IMG/VR virus record: IMGVR_UViG_3300023174_000088
Coordinates: 1-27,409 of that record
DNA length: 27,409 bases
Origin: a virus
Lineage: Duplodnaviria > Heunggongvirae > Uroviricota > Caudoviricetes
Reading direction: 5' to 3' (one strand)
Positions 2,936 through 16,688 of this stretch are shown here, piece after piece (position 1 is the stretch's first letter; the number at the start of each line of letters is the position of its first letter). Under the pieces are notes generated by a model that worked only from the letters and a program-made list of their open reading frames with translations, did not search any database and was not told the origin of the DNA. Position numbers and translations under genes: made by a program.

Positions 2936-5209
2936 ATGAAACGTCTATTAACTATTCTATTTCTTTTTTTGAGTGTGGCTTCCTTTGGTCAAATCTACCA
3001 AGCAATGCCTCAGGCAGGATATGGTCCTGTTAAGAGAATGTTATTTGATTCCGTTCTTACAATTCCTATTGGAATTCCTGGCCTCAGGAACATCCCAGGT
3101 GGTAGGGATGTTGGTCAAATCAGATATGTTACAAGCGACAGTAGCATATATGTATACACTGGCACCAATTGGGTAAAGGCAAGTTCCAGTGGTGGTGGCC
3201 CATCCACTCCTGACACAATCGTAGCAAAATATCCTATTCGTATAGATACAACAGGGGTGAGAGACACCATCTACCTTGCACAAGCATTCCTAGACAGTGT
3301 ATATAATGGTACAACAGGATTTGGAACTGGTCTCATCACTGCTGGAATAGTGCAGACAGACACAGTGATTAATGTCACACCACCCATAGTTTGGAAAAGA
3401 AACGGAACAGTGAATACACAAAATGTTGGGGAGGCATTCCCAATAACAAGGGCTAGTACAAACTATTTTAGAACAGACCTCATTTACATCACTGGAGCAG
3501 ATACCCTGAGTTATATTCAGGGAGTGGAGAGCTTGGTCAATCCAGCAGCCCCCATTGTTCCAGTGGATGGTATAGTGATTACATATGTAAATGTCTTTGA
3601 TACACTAGTTAACGCCAGTGGACCACCCTCCACCTACCAAAGGACAGCTGTTGTCTATATAGATGCTAACACAGGCTCATTGGCTACAGATAGTGTTTCC
3701 TTCAATTGGAATCAAACCACCAAAGATCTTACAATAAGTAGTCTTGGTGGGTCAGGTACAAGAATGGTAGTAGCAAGCCCTACAGGTGTACTTAGTACGC
3801 AACCTATATCTAGCGGTGGAACAGTGACATCTGTGGGACTAACTACAGGTACAACTGGCACTGATATTAACATTGGAGCTGGTACATCCCCAGTTACAAC
3901 AAGTGGAACTATTACATTAAATGTCCCAGATGCAGGAGCCACTTCTAGGGGAGTTGTTACAACAGGAACACAAACTTTTGCAGGAAGTAAAACTTTCACC
4001 TCAGATGTAACAGTGGAAGATGCAACTTTAGGAACAAAATTTGGAACTTCAATTCTAGCAAATAGTTCACTTTATTTTGGAAACAATGCAATTGTAAGTT
4101 TGACAAGTGGCACGGGAAATACAGCCTTAGGTAATAGAGCTGGTCTTTTTTTAGGAAGCGGAAATTCTAATGTGTTCATAGGTTATCAATCATCCTCATA
4201 CAGAGGTCTTGGTAATAATAACGTAACAATTGGTGTTTCAGCTGGTAACGGTGGATTAGCTCCTGGAGGTGTAGGAGATGAAAATACAATAGTTGGATCG
4301 CAAAATTTTATCAGACCCTCTTCTGGTAATAGAAACACATCAATTGGATTTAGTAATTTTCAGCTTTGTACATCAAGCTCAAATAATACAGTGATTGGTT
4401 CAGGAATTGAGATGAATGGATTTTCCTACACTTTATCAGACAATGTAATTCTTGGCGATGGACAAGGAAATATAAGATTTAGAAACACTGGACCATCTAC
4501 ATATTTAAATGGTAATGTTGGTATTGGTAGTTTTAATATGGGAAGTCTTACACCTACAGCTTCATCATACTTATTGCATATAATAGGAACAGCTGGTGCA
4601 ACAGCGCAATATATGCAGGGTAATTTAGAAGTACAAAATGGTGGCAATGGAACAAACATAATAAATGCACAGCTCAATAGATTTTCAGCAACAGAAAATA
4701 GAATAGAAGGGCATTTGACAAGGAGTACAAGTTGGTCACAGGGAGATATCATCAACTTGGATGGAGACGCACCTACAGTTCCTACCAGCCAGGCATGGAT
4801 TCCTATTAGTTTACAATCAGGAACAGTGATAAGAACAACTGGCAGTGCTAATAATAGCATGATAAGCCTTAGGCCAACATACAATTTTACAGGGACCTAC
4901 TCTGGTGAAACAATAGGAATAGACTACAGACCCACATTAACAAGTCTTAATGGAACATCACACATTGCATTGAGAGCTACAAGTGGTCAGGTGGTGATAG
5001 GAGCAGTCACTCCAGCTGCCTCAGCTGTGGTGGACATCACCTCCACAACCCAAGGCTTTCTCCCTCCCCGAATGACAGGAGCACAAGCAGAGCTCATAAG
5101 CAGCCCTGCTGAAGGCTTGATGGTGTATTCTACAGATGGAAGTGGAACCACTATAACAAGCAAGGGATGGTGGGGATATAATGGAACAACATGGGTGAAA
5201 CTAAACTAA
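2936..5209 (+). CDS. Tail fibre/adhesin-like protein with Sec signal peptide
   Basis: Likely start is the ATG at 2936 (MKRLLTILFLFLSVASFG|Q), not 2888. Contains the shared fibre module, NTALG/NVFIG/NVTIG/NTIVG/NTSIG/NTVIG beta-roll-like repeats, and C-terminal SAVVDITSTTQGFLPPRMT...PAEGLMVY..D...WGYNGTTW, a motif familiar from Bacteroidota proteins. Confidence 0.75.
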   Translation: MKRLLTILFLFLSVASFGQIYQAMPQAGYGPVKRMLFDSVLTIPIGIPGLRNIPGGRDVGQIRYVTSDSSIYVYTGTNWVKASSSGGGPSTPDTIVAKYPIRIDTTGVRDTIYLAQAFLDSVYNGTTGFGTGLITAGIVQTDTVINVTPPIVWKRNGTVNTQNVGEAFPITRASTNYFRTDLIYITGADTLSYIQGVESLVNPAAPIVPVDGIVITYVNVFDTLVNASGPPSTYQRTAVVYIDANTGSLATDSVSFNWNQTTKDLTISSLGGSGTRMVVASPTGVLSTQPISSGGTVTSVGLTTGTTGTDINIGAGTSPVTTSGTITLNVPDAGATSRGVVTTGTQTFAGSKTFTSDVTVEDATLGTKFGTSILANSSLYFGNNAIVSLTSGTGNTALGNRAGLFLGSGNSNVFIGYQSSSYRGLGNNNVTIGVSAGNGGLAPGGVGDENTIVGSQNFIRPSSGNRNTSIGFSNFQLCTSSSNNTVIGSGIEMNGFSYTLSDNVILGDGQGNIRFRNTGPSTYLNGNVGIGSFNMGSLTPTASSYLLHIIGTAGATAQYMQGNLEVQNGGNGTNIINAQLNRFSATENRIEGHLTRSTSWSQGDIINLDGDAPTVPTSQAWIPISLQSGTVIRTTGSANNSMISLRPTYNFTGTYSGETIGIDYRPTLTSLNGTSHIALRATSGQVVIGAVTPAASAVVDITSTTQGFLPPRMTGAQAELISSPAEGLMVYSTDGSGTTITSKGWWGYNGTTWVKLN
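3845..3997 (+). repeat. Shared fibre module, copy 2
   Basis: GTTGTDINIG...LNVPDAGATSRGVVTTGTQTFAGSKTF is similar to 1367..1501. Confidence 0.75.
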
Positions 5210-5216
5210 TAATAAC

Positions 5217-5462
5217 ATGGCAAGTTTAATTGACAAAGTGAAGATTAAAGCTGGAAGACTTGTAAAGGTTTGGAACACAGAGAAAAAGAAGTTTTCCAAC
5301 GCTAAGCCCTGGTATGTCTCTGTATGGGTGGAAGATGCTAACGGAAAGAACGAGAGATGTCTTCTCTTTACAGAGGCAGAAATAAAGAAAGCTGAAGAAA
5401 GAGCTTCCAAAAATCAAGAAGACCTGACATCAAAAGCATTTTTTACAAACATAATAGACTAA
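5217..5462 (+). CDS. Hypothetical protein
   Basis: 81-aa ORF; AACATGG start context like neighbouring genes; fills the gap on the coding strand. Confidence 0.7.
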   Translation: MASLIDKVKIKAGRLVKVWNTEKKKFSNAKPWYVSVWVEDANGKNERCLLFTEAEIKKAEERASKNQEDLTSKAFFTNIID

Positions 5463-5468
5463 AAAACC

Positions 5469-5591
5469 ATGGCAAGAAGTACAAACGACATTAGAAAAGT
5501 ATCCTTTGGAAGAAGAAAGGGTGGTAAACCAACCAAGTGTAAAGGTCCTAAAGCCAAATCTGTCTCTAAATACAGAGGACAGGGGAGATAA
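5469..5591 (+). CDS. Small basic peptide ending in YRGQGR
   Basis: Not in the ORF track. Translated by hand: MARSTNDIRKVSFGRRKGGKPTKCKGPKAKSVSKYRGQGR* (40 aa); AAAAACCATGG start context; TAA stop. Confidence 0.7.
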   Translation: MARSTNDIRKVSFGRRKGGKPTKCKGPKAKSVSKYRGQGR

Positions 5592-5630
5592 TGAGAAACA
5601 ATTTTTTAACATAAATTAAAACCTCTAACA

Positions 5631-5741
5631 ATGAGTATTCCCAATCAACAAATCGGATCAAGCGTAGAAGCAAAGCTTCTATGGCAAATTTCAAAGCAGC
5701 TGGAAAAGCTGATTCAAATCACATCTAAACTCGTACCTTAA
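5631..5741 (+). CDS. Small hypothetical protein
   Basis: Not in the ORF track. MSIPNQQIGSSVEAKLLWQISKQLEKLIQITSKLVP* (36 aa); A-rich leader; amphipathic helix. Confidence 0.7.
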   Translation: MSIPNQQIGSSVEAKLLWQISKQLEKLIQITSKLVP

Positions 5742-5767
5742 TTTTTAAACAATAAAAAACAACTGTT

Positions 5768-6187
5768 ATGACACCTAATAAGAGAGACTTAAAAGCCTTT
5801 GTCCGCTTCGATGGAAGTGGGAGAGTTGTTTCAAGTAGCCTCATTCTGAGAAAACAAAAGCCCAAAGTGGGCAAATGGATGGAAGTGCAAGCCTATCAAT
5901 GCTGCAATGGACCTTCTGTTATAACCACTCCTGGTGACACTCTTCCCAGTACAAACTTCTCTGTATCCATTGCTTGTGATGGTACAGAACAAAACGTATC
6001 ATTTGTACTTGTCGGAGCGTTTACCACTATTACAGCGGTGGTAGCAGCCTTGAATCTGCAATTTGGATTTATTGGCACATTCTCTGTAGCAGAAAACGGA
6101 ACAGACATTATTGTTACGCTTTCTGAAGATATGGCTGAAACCTTTAGAGGATGCGACATCACTGTAACGTCTTCATACAACCCGTAA
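5768..6187 (+). CDS. Hypothetical protein
   Basis: 139 aa; basic N-terminal half (AFVRFDGSGRVVSSSLILRKQKPKVGKW...QCCN) and beta-rich C-terminal half. Confidence 0.7.
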   Translation: MTPNKRDLKAFVRFDGSGRVVSSSLILRKQKPKVGKWMEVQAYQCCNGPSVITTPGDTLPSTNFSVSIACDGTEQNVSFVLVGAFTTITAVVAALNLQFGFIGTFSVAENGTDIIVTLSEDMAETFRGCDITVTSSYNP

Positions 6188-6205
6188 TATATAAAACCAA
6201 AAACC

Positions 6206-6619
6206 ATGCTATCTATTTTTCCAGAAGGAATGATGGGGGGATCTTCCTCCCTATCCCTGGACAGTGTTGCTGCCAAGCTTACACATTTTGTTGACCAGTT
6301 GCATCTATTGCATTGGCAGACAACGAGTTATGCGGAGCACCAAGCTCTTGGTGGACTGTATGACAAGGTGTTTGACCTCAAGGATGAGATTGTTGAGAAG
6401 ATGATGGGCTATTCAGGAAAGCGTCCTAAAGCAATGAAACATGACATGCTCAGAGACTATTCTATTGGAATAGCTACATCTGTAGTGAGTGATCTTATGT
6501 CCTTTGCAAAGGAGCTTCAAAGTTACGCATCCTCTAACGGAATGCCTGACATTGAGAATATAGCTCAGTCTTTGTCTGGAGAAGCAGCTAAAACCAAATA
6601 CCTGTTAACACTGTCTTAA
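6206..6619 (+). CDS. Dps/ferritin-like four-helix protein (DUF5856-like)
   Basis: LHLLHWQTTSYAEHQALGGLYDKVFDLKDEIVEK matches the Dps-type HW...H......Y...D...E ferroxidase pattern; helical; 137 aa. Confidence 0.8.
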   Translation: MLSIFPEGMMGGSSSLSLDSVAAKLTHFVDQLHLLHWQTTSYAEHQALGGLYDKVFDLKDEIVEKMMGYSGKRPKAMKHDMLRDYSIGIATSVVSDLMSFAKELQSYASSNGMPDIENIAQSLSGEAAKTKYLLTLS

Positions 6620-6903
6620 TGCGGATAGTAAAAAAGTATTTTCCTGAAGTGATGTCAGATAATGATGTTGCTTATTTCAATCATTTGTTCGGAATTGTGG
6701 AGTCTGTGGATGAGCTCTGTTCACTAGAGATCACCAAGACTCCACGTTCCTATCATTTTAGGATAGCTACATCCCTTCCGAAGTATAACGAACTCCTATT
6801 GAAAGAGCTGTTGAAATACCACAACCTCTTACAGATAAAATTAAACATGGGGAAGAGCATGAAAGCCTCAGCCACCATTGTATTTGATATAGATTTAAAT
6901 TAA
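6619..6903 (+). CDS. Hypothetical protein
   Basis: 94 aa; TAATG coupling to the Dps-like gene. Confidence 0.7.
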   Translation: MRIVKKYFPEVMSDNDVAYFNHLFGIVESVDELCSLEITKTPRSYHFRIATSLPKYNELLLKELLKYHNLLQIKLNMGKSMKASATIVFDIDLN

Positions 6904-6908
6904 ACAAA

Positions 6909-7340
6909 ATGCCCACATATATCAAGACAGGCTTTTGGGACAAGATTGTTGGGAACAACCCCCAACAAGCAAAAGCCCCTAAACAATGGCTCAATCTCGA
7001 CCTATTGATTTCAAAATCAAGGGGTTATAAAGTGTATTCAGCCCTGCTGACACAAACTAATGGAAATGATCCTACAGCAATAGTGTTGGAAAACACCCTC
7101 GGACCAATTACATATCAATATTCTACTGTAGGAAGATATAGTATATTATCATCTAGCTTGTTCACTACAGATAAGACATTTATTCTTATTGGAAATTCTG
7201 TAAATCTAAACCCTGGTGAATTAGTAAACTTTGGAATAGGAGGAGACAGCTCAATAACACTATGGTCTCTTGACAACACAGGGTCACAATCTGATGATAT
7301 ATTATTAAATACTCCTATAGAAATACGAGTGTACGATTAA
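6909..7340 (+). CDS. Hypothetical virion-type beta-rich protein
   Basis: 143 aa; YKVYSALLTQTNGNDPTAIVLENTLG...STVGRY...NTPIEIRVY segment resembles domains I recall from Bacteroidota phage tail proteins. Confidence 0.6.
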   Translation: MPTYIKTGFWDKIVGNNPQQAKAPKQWLNLDLLISKSRGYKVYSALLTQTNGNDPTAIVLENTLGPITYQYSTVGRYSILSSSLFTTDKTFILIGNSVNLNPGELVNFGIGGDSSITLWSLDNTGSQSDDILLNTPIEIRVYD

Positions 7341-7348
7341 AAAAAAGA

Positions 7349-7380
7349 TTTGGAAATATCAAACTAATTACATAGATTTG
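7349..7380 (+). promoter_or_regulatory. Bacteroidota primary-sigma promoter (-33 TTTG, -7 TAnnTTTG)
   Basis: TTTG (7349-7352), 20-nt spacer, TAGATTTG (7373-7380) followed by CGCC; intergenic, 29 nt before the ATG at 7410. Confidence 0.8.
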
Positions 7381-7409
7381 CGCCATTCTTAAACCAAAAA
7401 TTAAATAAT

Positions 7410-7664
7410 ATGCAAGTAGTTAAAGGTGAAGCAGTTGCTTCCTATGATCCCAGCAAGAAGTACACATGGACTCCAGAAGACCAATTCACACTGTCTGGAG
7501 CAGAATTTGGACTGGTTTTGAACACGCTCAGAGCCATCCTTAACACTCCTGAAGCAGCCAAGATTCTTTTGGCCAACCAAGCAAATGAGGTGGTTGAATC
7601 CACCCTTGCAAAGGCTGTAGAAGCTGGTGTGGTTAAAGAGGTGACAGAAGATGGTCAACAATAA
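7410..7664 (+). CDS. Hypothetical acidic protein
   Basis: 84 aa; first gene after the promoter; A-rich leader. Confidence 0.75.
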   Translation: MQVVKGEAVASYDPSKKYTWTPEDQFTLSGAEFGLVLNTLRAILNTPEAAKILLANQANEVVESTLAKAVEAGVVKEVTEDGQQ

Positions 7665-7683
7665 TAATTTAAAACGAATGAAT

Positions 7684-8118
7684 ATGAAAAGGACAATAAA
7701 GAAGTATCAAAATGCTCCTAAGCCTGTTACGAAAAATATGGGCATGACTATGGTTGAGCTCAAGAAGAAATACCGCAATGCTGACACCTTGCGAGATGTA
7801 AGAGGTGAAGAGGTTAATGCTAATGCTCCTAAAAAAATTCTTGAGCAGTACAACGATACATATAATGCGTTTGAAAGAAAGTTTGGTAATAAAGCTGCCC
7901 CAAGTGTTAAAAAACCTGCCAAGCAGAAAATGGGAGGTGTTACAAAAAAGAAGCTCAAGATGGGTGGTGCAGTTAAGAAGGGAGACCTTGTAGCTGCTGG
8001 TGTAACCAAAACCACTAAGAAAGCTCCTATGGTAGATCCCAAAGGGGCCTTCACAAAAGTGCAACAGCGCACGCTTGGCAACATGAAGAAAGGTGGTAAA
8101 ATGTCTAAAAAGAAATAA
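7684..8118 (+). CDS. Lys-rich basic protein
   Basis: Probable start 7684 (MKRTIKK; 7678 or 7651 possible); contains KMGG twice and MKKGGK; ends KMSKKK. Confidence 0.75.
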   Translation: MKRTIKKYQNAPKPVTKNMGMTMVELKKKYRNADTLRDVRGEEVNANAPKKILEQYNDTYNAFERKFGNKAAPSVKKPAKQKMGGVTKKKLKMGGAVKKGDLVAAGVTKTTKKAPMVDPKGAFTKVQQRTLGNMKKGGKMSKKK

Positions 8119-8120
8119 CC

Positions 8121-8447
8121 ATGGCTACAGTTAAGAAAATTAAGAAAGCACAAGGTGGAGACAGTCTTGCTATAAAAAAATCTGCTATATATAAAGCAAG
8201 CAAACCTACATTAGATTCTGCAGGAAAAAAGAACATGAACATTTTAAATGAAATGATTCCTATTGCACAACCTAAATTGAAGGCAATTAAAGCTAAAGAT
8301 GGTAAATGGATTCAGAAAGCCACAGCCTCCATTAAGCGTAGAGGTACAGAGGGTAAATGCACCCCCATCACTAAGCCAGGATGCACAGGTAGGGCTAAGG
8401 CTCTTGCTAAGACATTCAAGGCTATGGCCAAAGCTCGCAAGAAATAA
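8121..8447 (+). CDS. Lys-rich basic protein
   Basis: MATVKKIKKAQGG...AKDGKWIQKATASIKRRGTEGKCTPITKPGCTGRAKALAKTFK; 108 aa. Confidence 0.8.
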   Translation: MATVKKIKKAQGGDSLAIKKSAIYKASKPTLDSAGKKNMNILNEMIPIAQPKLKAIKAKDGKWIQKATASIKRRGTEGKCTPITKPGCTGRAKALAKTFKAMAKARKK

Positions 8448-8803
8448 TGCCTACAATTAAGAAACTTTTACAAGATGCTCCTAGGATGCGTGGTGTAACT
8501 CCTGTTCCTATGGGGCCTCTTGTTAAAAAGAAGGGGCAGTTCAAAGGAAGCACATTGAAATCTGGAGGAAGAGTGAAGGTGAGTGCTGGTGGTGAGAAGC
8601 ATGTTGTATATAAGAAAGAAAGTGCTACAGGTGTTGGCAAAGGCAAGAAAGGTCATATTATGGTGAACCACCCCACCAAAGACAAGGGAAAATGGGACAC
8701 TATAGACCTTACAGAGAAAGCTAAAGCCAAGACAGTTAAGCAAGGTGTAGCAGCCACAAAGAAATGGCATAAAGAAAATCCCTATCCTAAAAAGAAGAAA
8801 TAA
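8447..8803 (+). CDS. Lys-rich basic protein
   Basis: MPTIKK...LKSGG...; TAATG coupling at both ends; 118 aa. Confidence 0.8.
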   Translation: MPTIKKLLQDAPRMRGVTPVPMGPLVKKKGQFKGSTLKSGGRVKVSAGGEKHVVYKKESATGVGKGKKGHIMVNHPTKDKGKWDTIDLTEKAKAKTVKQGVAATKKWHKENPYPKKKK

Positions 8804-8979
8804 TGGCCACTATTAAAAAACCCATTCTGAAAAGAGCTGATGGCTCATATTCCCAAAGAGGACTTTGGGATAACTTGAGGAGCAAAGCAGCCCAGAATAA
8901 GAAAACTGGTGCTAAACCTAAAGCTCCCACCAAAGCTATGTTGACTCAGGAGAAAAAGATCAAAGCTAAAGGAAAATGA
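8803..8979 (+). CDS. Small Lys-rich protein
   Basis: Not in the ORF track. MATIKKPILKRADGSYSQRGLWDNLRSKAAQNKKTGAKPKAPTKAMLTQEKKIKAKGK* (58 aa); TAATG overlap upstream, ATGA overlap downstream. Confidence 0.8.
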   Translation: MATIKKPILKRADGSYSQRGLWDNLRSKAAQNKKTGAKPKAPTKAMLTQEKKIKAKGK

Positions 8980-9599
8980 TACTAGCTATTAGTGATGATT
9001 GTAAACGAAAATACTTCTCTGAGAAGAAAAAAGGAGGAGTTATTTACAAAATTACTAATGAAATAGATGGTAATTTTTATATAGGAAGTACAAATAATCT
9101 GATAAAAAGGTATTATACCCATGTAAATCACATAAGAACTGGCAAGAATAGTTGTGTAAAACTAATCAGAGCAGTTAACAAACATGGAGAAGAAAACTTT
9201 AAATTTGAGATTATTTGTGAGTGTTCTACTGAAGAGATTCTTAAAACAGAACAAGAATATATTGATAATCTACAGCCACATTATAATGTAGCTAAGATTG
9301 CTGGCAGTAACCTTGGGATAAAAAGAACTGAAGAGGTTAAGTTTAAAAAGTCAGCTTCTCAGAAGGAAAACTGGAAAGATGAAACTTATAGAGCCAAACA
9401 CCTAGAAAACTTATCAAAGAATTGGAAATCTGGTTCTAATCACAAAATGGCTAAACTTACAGAAGAACAGGTAATTGAGATTAAAAAACAATTATCAACT
9501 GGACTTCTCCCTAAGCAAGTAGCAGATAATCTTAAACTTAGTTATTACTCTATAAAAGATATTCATAGAGGAAAGACTTGGAAAAATATAAAAATTTAA
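8976..9599 (+). CDS. GIY-YIG homing endonuclease (free-standing, Seg-like)
   Basis: GVIYKITNEIDGNFYIGSTNNLIKRYYTH (GIY...YIG plus catalytic Arg), later EQEYI...YN; C-terminal helix-turn-helix-like AKLTEEQVIEIKK...SIKDIHRGKTW; visibly AT-richer than its neighbours. Confidence 0.9.
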   Translation: MILAISDDCKRKYFSEKKKGGVIYKITNEIDGNFYIGSTNNLIKRYYTHVNHIRTGKNSCVKLIRAVNKHGEENFKFEIICECSTEEILKTEQEYIDNLQPHYNVAKIAGSNLGIKRTEEVKFKKSASQKENWKDETYRAKHLENLSKNWKSGSNHKMAKLTEEQVIEIKKQLSTGLLPKQVADNLKLSYYSIKDIHRGKTWKNIKI

Positions 9600-9611
9600 A
9601 TCTAAGAAATA

Positions 9612-9881
9612 ATGGCAAGTGCAGCATGGCAAAAGAAAGAAGGAAAATCAGAATCTGGAGGATTGAATGCTAAGGGTGTTGCTTCCTACAGGAGGGAAAA
9701 TCCTGGAAGTAAGCTGAAAATGGCTGTAACTACCCCACCATCTAAACTTAAACCTGGAAGTAAAGCAGCAAACAGAAGAAAAAGTTTCTGTGCTCGAATG
9801 TCAGGGGTCGAGGGTCCTATGAAAAAGCCTAACGGTAAGCCTACAAGAAAAGCATTGGCATTAAGAAAATGGAATTGTTAA
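9612..9881 (+). CDS. Basic phage protein, DUF6321-like
   Basis: AAWQKKEGK...GGLNAKG...RRKSFCARM.G...GKPTRKALALRKWNC matches my recollection of the DUF6321 pattern. Confidence 0.75.
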   Translation: MASAAWQKKEGKSESGGLNAKGVASYRRENPGSKLKMAVTTPPSKLKPGSKAANRRKSFCARMSGVEGPMKKPNGKPTRKALALRKWNC

Positions 9882-9900
9882 CTAAAAATAAACTAAAAAA

Positions 9901-10068
9901 ATGAAAAAAGTATTGTTCGTATTGACACTGTCTGCATTGTTCACAGCATGTACATCTGTAGAAACCGAAGAGGTTAAACAAGATTCTACCATCATCGATT
10001 CCCTAAAGAGTGTTAAATCTGACACTACATGTGTAGAAGAGATTGACACCACCGCTAAAAAGAAATAA
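9901..10068 (+). CDS. Small lipoprotein
   Basis: Not in the ORF track. MKKVLFVLTLSALFTA|CTSVETEEVKQDSTIIDSLKSVKSDTTCVEEIDTTAKKK* (55 aa); basic n-region, hydrophobic h-region, lipobox FTAC. Confidence 0.8.
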   Translation: MKKVLFVLTLSALFTACTSVETEEVKQDSTIIDSLKSVKSDTTCVEEIDTTAKKK

Positions 10069-10070
10069 TC

Positions 10071-10412
10071 ATGGCAACAATTAAGAAGGCCTGCAAAGGT
10101 ACAAGCACTCCCAAATCCTCCAGTGTTTCCTCTCGTCTAGGATCTCCTAGCAAGGCTAAGTCTGGCACATCTCTCGGTATGAAGTCTGTAAAGGCTGGGT
10201 TTGATAAAAACCCTGGCGTTACAAGAGCTGACATTATTGTAGCTGGTAAGGGTCAAGCTAAGAAAGGAATGAAGGTTAAGAAGCAAGCTGCTACAGCAAT
10301 TGCTATGAAGAAAGCTGGCAAAGCTCCTAAAGCCATGATGGGAAACATGATGAAAAGCCCAATGATGAAAACTGGTGGCAAGATGGGCAAATGCAAATAC
10401 GGCTGTAAATAA
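10071..10412 (+). CDS. Lys/Met-rich basic protein
   Basis: MATIKKACKG...AKSG...DKNPGVTRADII...AKKG...MMGNMMKSPMMKTGGKMGKCKYGCK; 113 aa. Confidence 0.8.
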   Translation: MATIKKACKGTSTPKSSSVSSRLGSPSKAKSGTSLGMKSVKAGFDKNPGVTRADIIVAGKGQAKKGMKVKKQAATAIAMKKAGKAPKAMMGNMMKSPMMKTGGKMGKCKYGCK

Positions 10413-10433
10413 TCAACGAAAAATACAAATTTT

Positions 10434-13400
10434 ATGAAAAAAGCAATAACATTATTGTTATTTGTTCTTTATTGCTTTGTAGCTAACGCTACAAATTTTT
10501 ATGTTTCTAATATAGGTAATGATACCAATCCTGGAACATTAGCTTCCCCTTGGGCCACCACCTCTAAAGTGAATAGCTCAATGGGAAGTTTTGTTGCTGG
10601 GGATTCTATTCTTTTCCAGCGTGGAGGGGAGTTCTTTGGGACACTCACTGTCAACAAAGCAGGAGTGATTATTGGAGCTTACGGAACAGGCAATCTTCCC
10701 ATTATTACAGGCTTTAAGACACTCTCTGGATGGACAAATTCAGGAACTAATCTTTGGAACTCCGCTACGGCATCTCCTAAATCTTACATGAAGGTTGTTA
10801 CTTTAAATGGCGTAATGATAAGAATGGGTAGATTTCCCGATTGGGCAGATGCTCCAAGTGCTTGGTTAACATACACAAATAGTCTAACTGCAGGTATTAG
10901 TCCCATCACTGTAAATTCTGCTCAAACTCTTTCAACAACTTTTGTAGGTGGGGAACTTGTTTTAAGGAAAGAGCCTTATGTTTTAGATGTAATGCCAATT
11001 CTTTCGCAAACAGGAACAGGACTTAATATATTTAGCTGTACAAACCCCGATCCTAAGTGGTATGGTATAGGAAACTTTGGTTACTTCATCCAAAATCACC
11101 CATCAACCCTATCGGTGCAAAACGAATGGTATTTCAATCCATCCACTAAAAACATTACATTTTTTAGCACTTCAGTTCCTACAGGAGTGATTAAAGGAGC
11201 GGTATTTGATACCCTAGTGAGGGTTACGGAGGCAGATGTCACCATAGAAAATTTAGACATTCAAGGTAGCAACAGATTTGGGATTCACTCAACGGGGAGC
11301 AACTTTAGGCTAAAGAACAGCATCGTAAGATTTGCAGGATATTTTGGAGTTCAGCCTCTTGGGTCTTATACCATTACAAATAATACTATTAGAGATGTTG
11401 GAACTTGTGCGATTTATGCCAATAATAGTGGATTGATTCAAGGTAATCAAGTGAAAGCCATAGGTATGATTGATGGCATGGGGGCAAGCGGTAATGATCT
11501 TATGTTTGGGATTGCTCTTGAGAGTAACAACATAACGGTGCGAAACAATGTAGTTGATTCAATTTCTTATAGTGGAATTAAGATAGGTGGCTCAACAAAT
11601 GGTAATAATATCCTGATTCGTGAAAATGTAGTCAGTAATACCTGCATGAATAAAACTGATGGAGGTGGTATTTATTCGTATGGTGCTCGTGGCACTTGGA
11701 ATTTGACAAACAGGGTTATTAAAAGGAACATTCTTGTCAATAATGGCAAAATTGTGTATGGTATGCCAGGGGATGATGTAACTCTTTATTTCCCAATGTA
11801 CATGGACGGAGGTGCGATGAATGTAATAATTGATAGCAATGTAATTGCTTACGACAATGTAAGTCAAAACTCAGTTAATTCTCAGGGGATATGGAATAAT
11901 TATGCCATACTATTAAATAATCCAAAAAACATAACCCTTACCAACAATATAACATTTGCAACTCCGATTTCTTTTTCAATAAACGATTATTCTGGTATAC
12001 CCAAACCTACATTAAATACTATTACAAACAATTGTTTTTATGTAAACACCACACCAGGAGGCTCAAATTATAAAGAAACAAATAGATGTTTCTTTTGGCA
12101 TGCTCAACAAAATAGAACTCAAGCAGAAATGCAAATAGACATTGGGGCAATTGGAACTATGAATAATAATTATTACAACAATAATACATTATCTCCTTTT
12201 GGATGGACATCATATTCAGTTAATAGCACAGGGTTTCCAATAAAACTTGCAGGATGGCAATCGTTCAGCGGTAAGGATGCAGCTAGCGTTTCTACACCAA
12301 ACATTACTCCAGAATTTCAATATAACGCAACAGGTTCTCCAATTACATATGCTTTCAGTGGCAGGCAAAAGAAAGATTTTAAAGGGAACATCTATAACAA
12401 TCAGGCCACAATTGAACCCTACTACGCTAACATCTTCTTTGATAATGGTCCAGCTACAGGTACAAGCCTTGCAGCGTTTTCCACTGCATCTCAGATTAAC
12501 TGTGCAGGGGGCACTGCAACTGTAACTGTCACTGCTACAGGGGGTGTTCCTCCATATAGCGGTACAGGAACTTTCACTGTGACAGCAGGAACATACACAT
12601 ACACTGTTACAGATGCTGCCACCCCCACACCAAACAGCATCACCACCAGCATCACTGTCACACAGCCCCCAGTGCTTTCTGTTAATTCCAGCAAGACAAA
12701 TGTTCTCTGTAATGGAGGAAGTACAGGCACCATCACTGTTGTTGCAAGCGGTGGAACTCCTAATTACACATACAATTGGGGAGGTGGTGTGACAACACAG
12801 AATAGAACAGCATTGCCCATCGGTACATACACATGTACCATAACCGACTCTAAAGGATGCACAACAACAACATCACAGACGATCAACCAGCCAACAGCAT
12901 TATCAGCTGGAACTCCGACAGCACCAGCGATTTTGGTGAATGGAGGCACAACAACAATAACACAACCTGTTCCTACGGGGGCCACTTCACCCTATCAATA
13001 TCAGTTGAATACTGGGGCCTTCCAGACGAGCAATGTGTTCAATAATGTTTCTGCAGGTAATTACACTATCAACATCAAGGATGCTAACAATTGCACAATT
13101 GCAAGAACCATCTCTATAACACAGCCTACAGTGTTTTCAGCTACAGCCTCTGCTGGTACAATAGCCTGTAACGGAGGTAGTACGAATGTTGTTGTAAGCG
13201 CTTCAGGAGGCACTGCTCCCTACACTGGTACAGGTACATTCTCCAGAACTGCTGGAACTTATGTATTCACTGTTACAGATGCAGGTGGCTCCACAGCTTC
13301 TGCGAATGTTGTGATTACACAGCCTACAGTGATTACATCCACTGTAGCTTCTACAAATGTCACTTGTAATGGGGCATCTTCAGGATCTATCACTCTTACG

Positions 13401-14447
13401 GTGAATGGTGGAACTCCTGGATATACATTCCTCTGGAATGGAGGTCAAACCACACAGAACAGGACAGCTATTCCTGCAGGCACGTACACTGTAACTGTTA
13501 CAGATGCAAATGCTTGCACCCTCAACAGAAGCGTTACAATTACAGAGCCCACAGCTCTCTCAGTGACATCCTCTGTAAACCCCACAAATATCCTTTGCAA
13601 TGGAGGAACATCCTCTGTGACAATAGGGGCATCAGGAGGTTCATCTCCCTATACAGGGCTTGGAACTTTCCCACAGTCTGCAGGAACAGTCACCTATATA
13701 GTGACAGATGCTAATGGCTGTCCTGCAAGCAGACCCATAACATTGACACAGCCTGCTGTTCTTACAGCTTCCAATCCCACATCAGGAACCATTACAGTGA
13801 ACGGTGGAAACACCACCATCACACAACCAGTTCCTACAGGAGGTGTAAGTCCTTATACATATTCTCTTAACACAGGAGCATTCCAATCAAGCAATGTCTT
13901 TACAGGAGTGGCTGCTGGTACATATACAGTGAACATCAAAGATGCTAATGGATGTATAATTACAAAATCCATATCCATCACACAGCCTGCAGTGTTCAGT
14001 GCTTCTGCTGTACAAACTGGCCCAACAATCAATTGTAACGGACAAAATACAATTGTTACAGTGAGTGCAACAGGTGGCACAGCGCCTTATACAGGCACAG
14101 GAACTTTCACCGTACCTGCTGGTCCATATAATTACACGGTTACAGATGCCCTAGGAAACACAGCATCTGCTTCCATCACTATTTCTCAGCCTACAGAAGT
14201 GGTTGCCTCTATAGCAGCAGGATCCATCACCTCTGTTGGAGGCACTACGAATATTGTTGTTTCAGCCACAGGAGGTGTTCTGCCCTATACAGGAACAGGA
14301 ACATTTACAAGAGGAGCTGGACTGTATTCATTTACAGTGACAGACTCTAACGGATGTTCCAGTGTAGCTACAGTTTCTATAAATGACCCAGTCGTTATAC
14401 CCAACCAGTATTTAATCCTAAACTCCGTATTCAAAAATGGCAATTAA
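10434..14447 (+). CDS. Secreted right-handed beta-helix (pectin lyase-like) protein with SprB-type repeats
   Basis: Signal peptide MKKAITLLLFVLYCFVANA|; TNFYVSNIGNDTNPGTLASPWAT is a typical beta-helix N-terminus; Asn-ladder repeats and DGGGIY; then nine C(N)GG...GG..PY...AGTY..TVTDA.GC...I.QP repeats; no T9SS C-terminal domain. Confidence 0.85.
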   Translation: MKKAITLLLFVLYCFVANATNFYVSNIGNDTNPGTLASPWATTSKVNSSMGSFVAGDSILFQRGGEFFGTLTVNKAGVIIGAYGTGNLPIITGFKTLSGWTNSGTNLWNSATASPKSYMKVVTLNGVMIRMGRFPDWADAPSAWLTYTNSLTAGISPITVNSAQTLSTTFVGGELVLRKEPYVLDVMPILSQTGTGLNIFSCTNPDPKWYGIGNFGYFIQNHPSTLSVQNEWYFNPSTKNITFFSTSVPTGVIKGAVFDTLVRVTEADVTIENLDIQGSNRFGIHSTGSNFRLKNSIVRFAGYFGVQPLGSYTITNNTIRDVGTCAIYANNSGLIQGNQVKAIGMIDGMGASGNDLMFGIALESNNITVRNNVVDSISYSGIKIGGSTNGNNILIRENVVSNTCMNKTDGGGIYSYGARGTWNLTNRVIKRNILVNNGKIVYGMPGDDVTLYFPMYMDGGAMNVIIDSNVIAYDNVSQNSVNSQGIWNNYAILLNNPKNITLTNNITFATPISFSINDYSGIPKPTLNTITNNCFYVNTTPGGSNYKETNRCFFWHAQQNRTQAEMQIDIGAIGTMNNNYYNNNTLSPFGWTSYSVNSTGFPIKLAGWQSFSGKDAASVSTPNITPEFQYNATGSPITYAFSGRQKKDFKGNIYNNQATIEPYYANIFFDNGPATGTSLAAFSTASQINCAGGTATVTVTATGGVPPYSGTGTFTVTAGTYTYTVTDAATPTPNSITTSITVTQPPVLSVNSSKTNVLCNGGSTGTITVVASGGTPNYTYNWGGGVTTQNRTALPIGTYTCTITDSKGCTTTTSQTINQPTALSAGTPTAPAILVNGGTTTITQPVPTGATSPYQYQLNTGAFQTSNVFNNVSAGNYTINIKDANNCTIARTISITQPTVFSATASAGTIACNGGSTNVVVSASGGTAPYTGTGTFSRTAGTYVFTVTDAGGSTASANVVITQPTVITSTVASTNVTCNGASSGSITLTVNGGTPGYTFLWNGGQTTQNRTAIPAGTYTVTVTDANACTLNRSVTITEPTALSVTSSVNPTNILCNGGTSSVTIGASGGSSPYTGLGTFPQSAGTVTYIVTDANGCPASRPITLTQPAVLTASNPTSGTITVNGGNTTITQPVPTGGVSPYTYSLNTGAFQSSNVFTGVAAGTYTVNIKDANGCIITKSISITQPAVFSASAVQTGPTINCNGQNTIVTVSATGGTAPYTGTGTFTVPAGPYNYTVTDALGNTASASITISQPTEVVASIAAGSITSVGGTTNIVVSATGGVLPYTGTGTFTRGAGLYSFTVTDSNGCSSVATVSINDPVVIPNQYLILNSVFKNGN
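12471..14390 (+). repeat. Nine tandem SprB-like repeats (about 65-78 aa each)
   Basis: Three subtypes: short PYTGTGTF (S), YTYxW...TTQNRTA (W), and TITQPVPTG...LNTGAFQ.SNVF (F), in the order S-W-F-S-W-S-F-S-S. Confidence 0.85.
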
Positions 14448-15688: not shown

Positions 15689-16191
15689 AATATGTATTAG
15701 GCTTGGTTTTTGCCACACTCGTATTAGCTTCTTGCTATACAGACAAGAAAGCCATAAAGCAGATAGAAAAGGCTATGGAGAAGAAGCCTGAGCTCACTCT
15801 TGAGAAGTTCAGAGCTAATTATCCATGTATAGAGACAAGCTCTGACACAACAATCGTCATTAAAGACACCACTATAGAAGTGGAGGTTGAGTGTCCAGAT
15901 CTTGTTGATACAACATTCATCAGGGACACTATCAAGACTGTGAATAATAAGGTGGTTATTAAGAAGGTGCCTGTTAAGGTGCAACTTCCTGGTCAGGTTA
16001 TTACAAAATACATTGAGGACAGCGCTAAGATAAAGTTGCTCTCTATAGAGAACCAAAAGCTCATTGACGAGAACAAAAAGCTCAAATATGAGGTGAACCA
16101 TCTTAAATCCTGGAGAAAATACCTGATTATTCCCTATCTTTTAGTAATTTTATTCCTCATTATAAAAGCACTCACTAAGAAAAGTTTATGA
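15685..16191 (+). CDS. Lipoprotein with C-terminal TM, unimolecular-spanin-like
   Basis: Likely start 15685 (ATGA overlap): MKYVLGLVFATLVLAS|C lipobox; beta-rich middle, coiled coil, then YLIIPYLLVILFLII TM and a basic tail. This is the u-spanin topology. Confidence 0.7.
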   Translation: MKYVLGLVFATLVLASCYTDKKAIKQIEKAMEKKPELTLEKFRANYPCIETSSDTTIVIKDTTIEVEVECPDLVDTTFIRDTIKTVNNKVVIKKVPVKVQLPGQVITKYIEDSAKIKLLSIENQKLIDENKKLKYEVNHLKSWRKYLIIPYLLVILFLIIKALTKKSL

Positions 16192-16688
16192 AACCAAAAG
16201 ACTTTGTGAACACCTTTCTTCAATTTGCTGTAGAGACGGAAAGAAAAACAGGAATAAACGCATATTTTACATTAGCTCAGGCAGCTATCGAGAGTGGGTG
16301 GGGAGATATGGCTCCAGGAAACGCATTCTTTGGTGTAAAGGACACTGATGGGGTGAATGGAAACGAACAGCTTCTCACCACAACAGAATACAGCAGGAGA
16401 ATGGATCTGAAGTTTCCCGTAGTGATTAGTGTCACTCCTGTCATGAGGAACGGCATAAGGATGTTCAAATACATCGTTAAGGACTATTTCAGAAAATACG
16501 ACACTCCTGAGGAGTGCTTTACAGAGCACAGCCAGTTCTTTCTAAAGAATAAAAGGTATGCAAAAGCATTAGAAGTGAGGGAAGATCCTTATAAATTCGC
16601 TGATGCTGTAGCTAGAGCAGGGTATGCAACAGATCCCAACTACGCTAAATTGTTAAAGGATGTCATAAAAATGATTGAGAATTTATGA
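16188..16688 (+). CDS. Endolysin, GH73 glucosaminidase/muramidase (FlgJ-type domain)
   Basis: LAQAAIESGWG (catalytic Glu), NAFFGVK, FRKYDTPEE and GYATDPNYA motifs; no signal peptide. Confidence 0.9.
   Translation: MKPKDFVNTFLQFAVETERKTGINAYFTLAQAAIESGWGDMAPGNAFFGVKDTDGVNGNEQLLTTTEYSRRMDLKFPVVISVTPVMRNGIRMFKYIVKDYFRKYDTPEECFTEHSQFFLKNKRYAKALEVREDPYKFADAVARAGYATDPNYAKLLKDVIKMIENL

Follow-up and report, generated by a model that had tools for sequence, protein, structure and literature searches.

Positions 7684 to 10412 of the window, by which we mean the whole analysed stretch of 27,409 nucleotides from the IMG/VR record IMGVR_UViG_3300023174_000088, hold a cassette of eight genes on the + strand, five of which encode Lys-rich proteins with a short T[IV]KK motif at the N-terminus. 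The window covers the first 27.4 kb of a phage genome of 114,968 bp that is 99% complete. The PHROG matches of this genome include TerL, the portal and the major capsid protein (MCP), giant open reading frames of 1295-4753 amino acids (aa) are also present, and we infer that the phage is crAss-like (Crassvirales) and aquatic. The cassette belongs to the late region, with tail-fibre-like genes on one side and an endolysin gene (16188-16688) on the other. An earlier note on this DNA had suggested that T[IV]KK might be a capsid-targeting tag, analogous to the one of the T4 internal proteins. The genes of the cassette are the following.

7684..8118, + strand: b1, a 144-aa Lys-rich protein with the start MKRTIKK (alternative in-frame ATGs at 7651 and 7678; ends in KKK-stop)
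8121..8447, + strand: b2, a 108-aa Lys-rich protein with the full leader MATVKKIKKAQGG and module b (KDGKWIQKA..GKCTPITKPGCTGRAKALAKTFKAM)
8447..8803, + strand: b3, a 118-aa protein with the start MPTIKK, disordered in its N-terminal part and folded into a conserved domain over residues ~40-112 (GGEKHVVYKK..IMVNHPTKDKGKWDTIDLT..KKWHKENP)
8803..8979, + strand: b4, a 58-aa protein with the start MATIKK, followed by module d (KRADGSYSQRGLWDNLR..KPKAPTKAMLTQEKKIK)
8976..9599, + strand: GIY-YIG homing endonuclease (Pfam: PF01541, E 8.9e-11; phrog_314, E 4e-24), whose start overlaps the b4 stop (ATGA)
9612..9881, + strand: DUF6321 module as a separate 89-aa gene (Pfam: PF19846, E 2.9e-24, 85.9 bits at a gathering cut-off of 28.5) with the start MASAAWQ
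9901..10068, + strand: predicted lipoprotein of 55 aa with the lipobox LFTAC, whose KKK-stop end is the junction for b5
10071..10412, + strand: b5, a 113-aa Lys/Gly-rich protein with the start MATIKK and the modules f (GMKSVKAGFDKNPGVTRADIIVAGKG), g (KKQAATAIAMKKAGKAPK) and h (GGKMGKCKYGCK)

The five tagged starts lie where the earlier note had placed them, with ATGs at 7684 (MKRTIKK), 8121 (MATVKK), 8447 (MPTIKK), 8803 (MATIKK) and 10071 (MATIKK). Its description of the genes as closely spaced or coupled is also correct, as only 2 nucleotides (nt) separate the genes at 8118/8121 and at 10068/10071, and the genes that meet at 8447 and at 8803 overlap in the form TAATG. The start of b1 is the weakest of the five: its frame is open from 7651, and two residues instead of one separate M and T. 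All five proteins are rich in Lys (22-24% K), with isoelectric points (pI) of 10.4-10.8 and net charges of +14 to +29. They are otherwise dissimilar, as had been noted, and paralogy of b1-b5 can be ruled out, because an all-vs-all blastp search returned compositional similarity only (best E 0.001, six-sequence database).

We counted the motif over the whole genome and compared it with a background of 30 composition-matched shuffles and a reversed-pattern control. In a six-frame search, M.{0,3}T[IV]KK gave 6 matches in the 114,968 bp, compared with a mean of 0.47 (maximum 3) in the shuffles and 0 for the reversed pattern. These six are the five gene starts named above and the start of one small gene that lies immediately before the gene of the large terminase, TerL. 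In a greedy gene call of 125 genes, tagged starts are found in 5 out of the 8 cassette genes and in 1 out of the 117 other genes (Fisher p = 1.4e-6). MCP, portal, TerL, the tail genes and the giant proteins have a start of a different kind. Since these genes start differently, T[IV]KK is not a general A-rich start preference; the objection that such a preference would be common to non-virion genes, raised in the earlier note itself, fails on the single tagged gene among the 117.

None of b1-b5 matched any Pfam or PHROG family in profile scans. Neither a tblastn search with b2, b3, b4 and b5 against 50,697 phage records nor a megablast search with positions 5000-14000 of the window found a match. 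The b3 family has about 790 metagenomic homologs, the majority of which begin with MA[ST][IVL]KK, and some of which are fused to DUF6321 (P0003, P0075). An AlphaFold2 model of b3, built from a 70-sequence alignment, has 39 disordered N-terminal residues, and residues 40-112 are modelled as a four-strand sheet plus a helix with moderate confidence (mean predicted local distance difference test score, pLDDT, 68.5). The domain model has no significant structural neighbour, with all Foldseek hits against the PDB at E>1 and a best Z of 4.4, within noise, in the wide VIA-align search. The AP2/GCC-box, lambda Int N-domain and Cren7 sheet-plus-helix DNA-binding folds were rejected as candidates for b3, as they are present only in noise-level rows of the structure searches.

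The module-start motif in related phages

Syntenic stretches of related phages were fetched from metagenomic phage contigs with b3-family members as anchors, eight of the stretches coming from contigs of 94-116 kb. The counts in this section cover 59 cassette genes, namely those of the window and of the loci L001-L004 and L006-L009; L005 was not tabulated. A longer motif emerged, [IVLM]-K-K-(x0-3)-A-Q-x-G, of which T[IV]KK forms the first half. A start of the form M-x(1,2)-[IVLM]-[KR]-K is found in 31 out of the 59 genes. The full [IVLM]KK..AQxG motif has 21 N-terminal copies and about 13 internal ones, and the internal copies lie at module junctions behind GGK or GKK. It is more than 100-fold enriched at protein positions 2-4 relative to the interior, and many leaders finish in Q-x-G-G. 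T[IV]KK thus opens a module-start motif that is strongly enriched at the N-terminus but not restricted to it.

The same module can be found behind either form of the motif. One example is MAKVKKAQAG-LKASNKRVGPV in L009 versus GGKIKKAQAG-LKASNKRVGPV in L008, and a second is DUF6321, with MATVKKS-AAWQRKEG in L003 versus GGTVKKAKTG-AWQRKEG in L007. Furthermore, the leader is present or absent on one and the same module among the relatives, as seen for DUF6321 and module d. The cassettes consist of about ten short conserved modules, which are fused, split and reordered between phages, and no two cassettes are alike.

Module a: KRVGPVDPKGAWTKVQERT
Module b: KDGKWIQKA..CTPITKPGCTG..
Module c: the b3 domain
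Module d: KRADGSYSQRGLWDNIR..
Module e: DUF6321
Module f: EF-hand-like GGSFPDLNKDGKVTKAD
Module g: KKQAAxAIAMKKAGK
Module h: the C-terminal GGKCKYGC
Module i: ..YMKEADTKLRLKS..
Module X: the N-terminal module of b1

In b1, module X (MTMVELKKKYRNADTLRDVRGEE..YNDTYNAFERKF) is followed by module a (KKAPMVDPKGAFTKVQQRTLGNMKKGGK); L007 (3890) has the two in reversed order, a then X, with the linker GGK-IKKAQEG. Module b is found alone or fused in L002 (5852), L003 (7099), L004 (4417), L006 (4136), L007 (4416) and L008 (5417). Module d lacks the leader in L001 (4064), L004 (5351) and L007 (3736), and forms the C-terminus of fused proteins in L002 (6669), L006 (3449), L008 (4954) and L009 (5204); it starts with MATIKKPILKRADGS in the window versus MAKQMIKRKDGS in L007. 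The modules of b5 recur in L001 (6651), L002 (7357), L003 (7894), L006 (5310), L007 (9314) and L009 (6749).

Two further architectures were seen in the relatives. In L007:6001-6659, the b3 family is split at GG-[KT]-V-K. Its N-terminal half (PNGPLIKKKG..LKEGG) is joined via TVKKAKTG to DUF6321 and the folded b3 domain sits behind a different leader segment, a recombination event caught at the motif. L001:4690-5697 and L007:4847-5812 each encode, inside the basic cassette, a protein of 321-335 aa with a Pfam match to LCIB_C_CA (carbonic-anhydrase-like), and the N-terminal segment of these proteins resembles that of the protein at 5768-6187 of the window.

Stop-start junctions and leader codons

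Fused and split forms differ by a short stop-start insert (AAAAAGAAATAA nn ATGGCNACN). For example, the fused form ..KKGGK-IKKAQxG.. is met as ..KKGGK-MSKKK(stop) MAT-VKKIKKAQGG.. in the split form. In the DNA this is visible as a junction repeat of 27-33 nt, CTAAAAAGAAATAAnnATGGCNACNRTTAAGAA, with copies that are 74-91% identical. The junction core AAGAAATA(A nn)ATG has 5 copies in the genome, in the cassette only, and one of them precedes the untagged DUF6321 gene. The strict 31-nt junction is also present in 15 other IMG/VR contigs. The repeat copies in the window are listed here.

8105..8137, + strand: junction copy 1, 33 nt, repeat family D2
8439..8465, + strand: junction copy in the TAATG overlap form (AAGAAATAATGCCTACAATTAAGAAAC), repeat family D1
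8787..8819, + strand: junction copy in the TAATG overlap form, repeat families D1 and D2
10055..10087, + strand: junction copy 91% identical to 8105-8137, repeat family D2

At the DUF6321 gene of the window, the upstream junction is kept (AAGAAATAATGGCA) and TVKK is gone, with MASAAWQ versus MATVKKSAAWQ in L003. The GIY-YIG endonuclease is an insertion between the module-d gene and the DUF6321 gene, and it is absent from the cassettes of L001-L009. The small lipoprotein at 9901-10068 has look-alikes in the same place in L006 (5880-6008) and L007 (6681-6836), with weak PHROG matches to Rz-like spanins.

The gene before a junction usually ends in KKK-stop, and this tail is coded AAAAAGAAA (AAA AAG AAA TAA) in 18 out of 24 cases. 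A -1 frameshift at A-AAA-AAG was considered and rejected, as the zero frame is mostly T-AAA-AAG (TCT/GCT AAA AAG AAA TAA) and the heptamer rule is not satisfied. The stereotyped AAA AAG AAA is more simply explained as a Lys tail that avoids a run of nine A. Different synonymous codons are used for Ala, Thr and Lys in the leader, with a mild bias towards A/T endings. Codon 2 is GCA in 59% of cases versus 22% in gene interiors, and Ile is coded ATT in 92% versus 53%. The synonymous variation indicates that the peptide is under selection.

All junctions place an A at -3 and A-rich sequence before each ATG. Bacteroidota lack Shine-Dalgarno sequences, and their initiation is tuned by mRNA structure and A(-3) (PMC6847099); the start context at the junctions fits this mode of initiation. 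The motif could then be a feature of translation initiation, in which A-rich unstructured codons and the KKK-TAA context suit Shine-Dalgarno-less ribosomes and the peptide is a by-product. The A(-3), the GCA and ATT preferences and the AAA AAG AAA tails agree with such an origin. Against it, MCP, portal and tail genes do without this start, the same peptide is met again within proteins, where initiation plays no part, and the Thr, Ala and Lys codons vary freely. We consider this explanation very unlikely.

Another possibility is that the motif has no targeting role, and is a flexible Lys-rich DNA-contacting linker or N-terminal arm whose DNA offers microhomology for the recombination of modules. 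The b3 family of L007, broken exactly at GG-[KT]-V-K-[KV] with its halves joined to other modules, speaks for this, as do the 4-5 copies of the junction repeat within 2 kb, the recurrence of its strict form in other contigs, and the same start on the neutral protein before TerL, possibly a DNA-binding small terminase. The synonymous variation, on the other hand, leaves the repeats imperfect and poor substrates for homologous recombination, and the strong enrichment at positions 2-4 is the pattern of a start-specific function. On balance this reading is rather unlikely.

DUF6321 in other phages and the possible packaging of the cassette proteins

The DUF6321 module connects the cassette to other phages. 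It is contained in more than 8000 longer proteins, the 120 best-scoring of which show identities of at least 69%, in most cases 85-92%, to the module of the window. Among phage records it is found in 543, which include T4-like and T7-like cyanophages and pelagiphages. Homing may help to explain the 85-92% identity across unrelated phages. In the T4-like cyanophages S-P4 (gp060) and S-SM1, DUF6321 is the C-terminus of a protein annotated as T4-GC119, which adjoins terS. The DUF6321 end of SSM1_115 (T4-LIKE GC 119, 1488 nt) of S-SM1 is 60% identical to window 9612-9881 (E 1e-14), and T4-GC119 (1488 nt in S-SM1) is listed with 13 peptide counts in purified S-SM1 virions (PMC3037559 Suppl. Table 8). 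T4-GC119 has been described in a mobile cassette with an endonuclease (Sullivan et al. 2010, PMC3037559). S-TIP37, a T7-like cyanophage, has a DUF6321 gene, followed by a gene that resembles module d, between its scaffold and capsid genes. A literature search on DUF6321 found no paper.

The 120 best longer DUF6321 proteins, which come from other kinds of phages, mostly begin with MK[ST][FL]KQ[FY]LEE and similar sequences. The capsid targeting sequence (CTS) of T4 is MKTYQEFIAE (PMC8442874); its residues 4 and 7 direct targeting and its residues 8 and 10 processing, and the gp21 site is L/I-X-E (PMC9026906). We found 55 [EQ][GS][IVL][ATS]E[GD] motifs, which resemble the gp21 site, in 39 out of the 120 proteins, and the VKKAQxG form is almost absent from them. 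From their sequences, these longer proteins look like polyproteins for a gp21-type head protease. In these proteins (P0121-P0240), motifs of the G-V-A-E-G type stand between small Cys-containing modules (CWPG..NCVP, KVWPSAYASG..). The leader and junction motifs are lineage-specific on shared modules, with T4-type motifs in one set of phages and MAT[IV]KK/GGK[IV]KKAQxG in the crAss-like set. This contrast on a shared module is the strongest argument for a functional motif comparable to the CTS, and it is an argument from analogy only.

The capsid-targeting claim of the earlier note stands in part. The peptide is conserved, it is found on unrelated modules, one of these modules is virion-detected elsewhere, and homologs carry CTS-like leaders. 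Other findings weaken it: about 13 copies are internal at module junctions, the giant cargo-type proteins are without the motif, and no prohead protease was found in the 99%-complete genome, with no match to any of seven peptidase families (S77, S78, ClpP, S49, C48, C39 and C5).

As a whole, the best explanation in our view is a portable leader and junction motif on a modular basic cassette of probably head-internal proteins, to which we would give an even chance. The motif, its enrichment, its internal copies, its conservation as a peptide, the shuffling of modules and the homology of DUF6321 to a virion-detected protein of a cyanophage are observed directly, whereas late expression, packaging and the role of the leader are predictions. 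The five genes are this phage's version of a late, fast-changing cassette whose proteins are small, very basic and largely disordered. These proteins are probably products of late expression that enter the capsid together with the DNA, as internal or cargo proteins; crassvirus capsids have a cargo zone of ~5.1 MDa (PMC10172136). The motif precedes a module wherever one begins, as M-A-x-[IV]-K-K-(x0-3)-A-Q-x-G(G) at gene starts and as G-G-K-[IVLM]-K-K-A-Q-x-G inside fusions. Split and fused architectures interconvert via the stop-start junction AAA AAG AAA TAA nn ATG GCN ACN, and the same junction supplies the next gene with an A-rich, A(-3) start context. The leader may act as a common handle, either for procapsid recruitment or as a shared DNA-contacting or linker segment, and would stand where T4-like phages have CTS-like leaders and L/I-x-E junctions on these modules.

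Several observations weigh against this explanation. In Pfam, PHROG and phage-record searches, no experimentally characterised homolog of b1, b2, b4 or b5 was found. For PhicrAss001, the cargo that the main text lists on the basis of virion mass spectrometry consists of five large proteins (gp45-gp50), with no small basic one among them (PMC10172136), and T4-GC119 was not detected in Syn9 virions (PMC3037559 Suppl. Table 8). None of the genome's giant cargo-type proteins has the leader. The DUF6321 gene of the window has lost TVKK beside the inserted homing endonuclease, which shows that one module at least can do without the leader. Finally, the sixth bearer of the tag is a near-neutral protein of 111 aa with the start MATTIKK, immediately upstream of TerL (genome 54201-54536; L012:2202-2537), whose close relatives retain MAT(T)IKKTTY. 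It may be a small terminase, to which sub-threshold atlas leads point, and hence a DNA-binding protein that is not packaged.

A stricter version would take T[IV]KK as a dedicated N-terminal targeting propeptide that attaches to the core of the prohead and is later removed by a maturation protease, with the internal copies as cleavage sites of polyprotein-like fusions. Leader and internal junctions carry the same motif, just as CTS and internal sites share L/I-x-E in the T4-type homologs; if the modules end up as separate pieces in any case, free change between fused and split forms would be neutral; and the Q-x-G-G endings of many leaders also suit a cleavage site. The arguments against it are that the seven peptidase families are empty in the 99%-complete genome, with no match at E<=1 for Peptidase_S77 (Pfam: PF03420), that the motif is unlike any known viral protease site that could be compared, that the words 'protease' and 'scaffold' are absent from the main text of the PhicrAss001 structural paper (PMC10172136), and that the DUF6321 protein of the window does without the tag. 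We regard the strict version as unlikely. Equally doubtful, in our judgement, is [IV]-K-K-A-Q-x-G-G as an undescribed address-and-punctuation code of aquatic crAss-like phages, which would combine procapsid recruitment of a polyprotein-like set of basic cargo modules with cut sites for a protease of an unrecognised family or for a host enzyme, would be an equivalent of T4 CTS/gp21 with unrelated sequence, and could serve to tag proteins for encapsidation in Bacteroidota phages. Double-glycine leader and clan CE processing systems have a cognate cysteine peptidase encoded with their substrates; the searches of the genome for C39 (Pfam: PF03412), C5/adenain (Pfam: PF00770) and C48/Ulp1 (Pfam: PF02902) were empty.

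The cassette proteins might also be absent from the virion and act as late or middle intracellular effectors on a conserved host target such as the ribosome or the nucleoid, or in lysis, for example as cationic disruptors of the outer membrane. A universal target would agree with the 85-92% identity that DUF6321 keeps between phages of very different types, and the cassette has an endolysin gene a few kb downstream and a small lipoprotein gene inside it. Against this, T4-GC119 was seen in virions (PMC3037559), the modules are found in head and packaging neighbourhoods of T4-like and T7-like phages, and homologs have CTS-like leaders. A role outside the virion is highly improbable on this evidence.

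Two acidic proteins are of note in connection with the basic cassette.

7410..7664, + strand: acidic 84-aa protein, pI 4.5, whose gene immediately precedes the basic cassette in all relatives examined

In every relative, the cassette is in the same place, behind a Dps-like gene and this conserved acidic gene. The acidic protein has 46-67% identity in an alignment of 8 sequences; it has no family, and its matches in an atlas search were all viral clusters without a name. A role as a chaperone or adaptor of the basic proteins is conceivable; a complex prediction with b2 had a score of 0.00 and a pLDDT below 50 for the partner. The second, a very acidic protein of 419 aa (genome 59799-61058; L012:7800-9059; pI 4.6, net charge -34, Glu-rich N-terminal half), is encoded directly upstream of the MCP gene and is a candidate scaffolding protein in a lineage without a described one. 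A scaffold-like acidic protein at this position makes electrostatic co-assembly of the basic proteins plausible. The Dps/ferritin-like gene of the window (6206-6619; DUF5856 in relatives; phrog_858) lies a few genes upstream of the cassette in most of the relatives fetched.

Comparison with known systems

We know of no scaffold-protease system in the head assembly of Crassvirales. Should the leader serve as a packaging handle, this abundant and mostly uncultured order would have its first targeting signal for head cargo, which would also offer a simple tag to load foreign proteins into capsids of this kind. Regardless of packaging, unrelated aquatic phages (T4-like, T7-like, pelagiphage and crAss-like) draw on a common pool of tiny basic modules, to which each lineage adds its own leader and junction motif. 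This amounts to an exchange of modules with lineage-specific 'adapters'. New in this study are the genome-wide statistics, the equivalence of N-terminal and internal motifs, the stop-start junction, the contrast between lineages and the direct confirmation of the link to S-SM1 virions.

The core proteins pVII and pX of adenoviruses are basic and DNA-associated, and are matured by adenain at (M/I/L)XGG-X, their precursors thus having processing motifs with Gly-Gly. The comparison with them is limited to a possible mechanism, as our motif does not fit (M/I/L)XGG and there is no sequence relationship to this eukaryotic virus. PhicrAss001 is a member of the order inferred for our phage, and has cargo proteins (gp45, gp46, gp47, gp49 and gp50) that form a large protein cargo ejected with the DNA (PMC10172136). 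In contrast to the cassette proteins, these are large (60-277 kDa) and predicted to be helical, and no common leader is described for them in the main text of that paper; their giant homologs in our genome are without the motif.

T4-GC119 of cyanophages has the DUF6321 module in common with the cassette, and is likewise basic (pI 9.9, 16% K), modular and of highly variable length (276-2985 nt). It is part of a mobile cassette with an endonuclease, and in the window a GIY-YIG gene abuts DUF6321. Unlike the cassette, T4-GC119 is one long multi-module protein and not a row of genes, has neither T[IV]KK nor VKKAQxG, and adjoins terS. It is virion-detected in S-SM1, whereas the proteins of the window are known here from their genes alone.

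The T4 internal proteins with their CTS differ from the cassette in several respects. The leader of the window is basic, A-T-[IV]-K-K, and has no acidic residue and no L/I-x-E in the first 12 residues. The T4 system has a gp21-type protease, and none was found in the genome of our phage in the PF03420 search. Moreover, the motif of the window is also internal, the phage is crAss-like and not T4-like, and the packaging of its cassette proteins is a prediction. The T4 internal proteins are likewise small, highly basic and otherwise dissimilar proteins with a common short N-terminal leader, and the window has this T4-type trait: small basic proteins that are alike only in their leader, encoded at a variable locus whose cassette differs in every relative.

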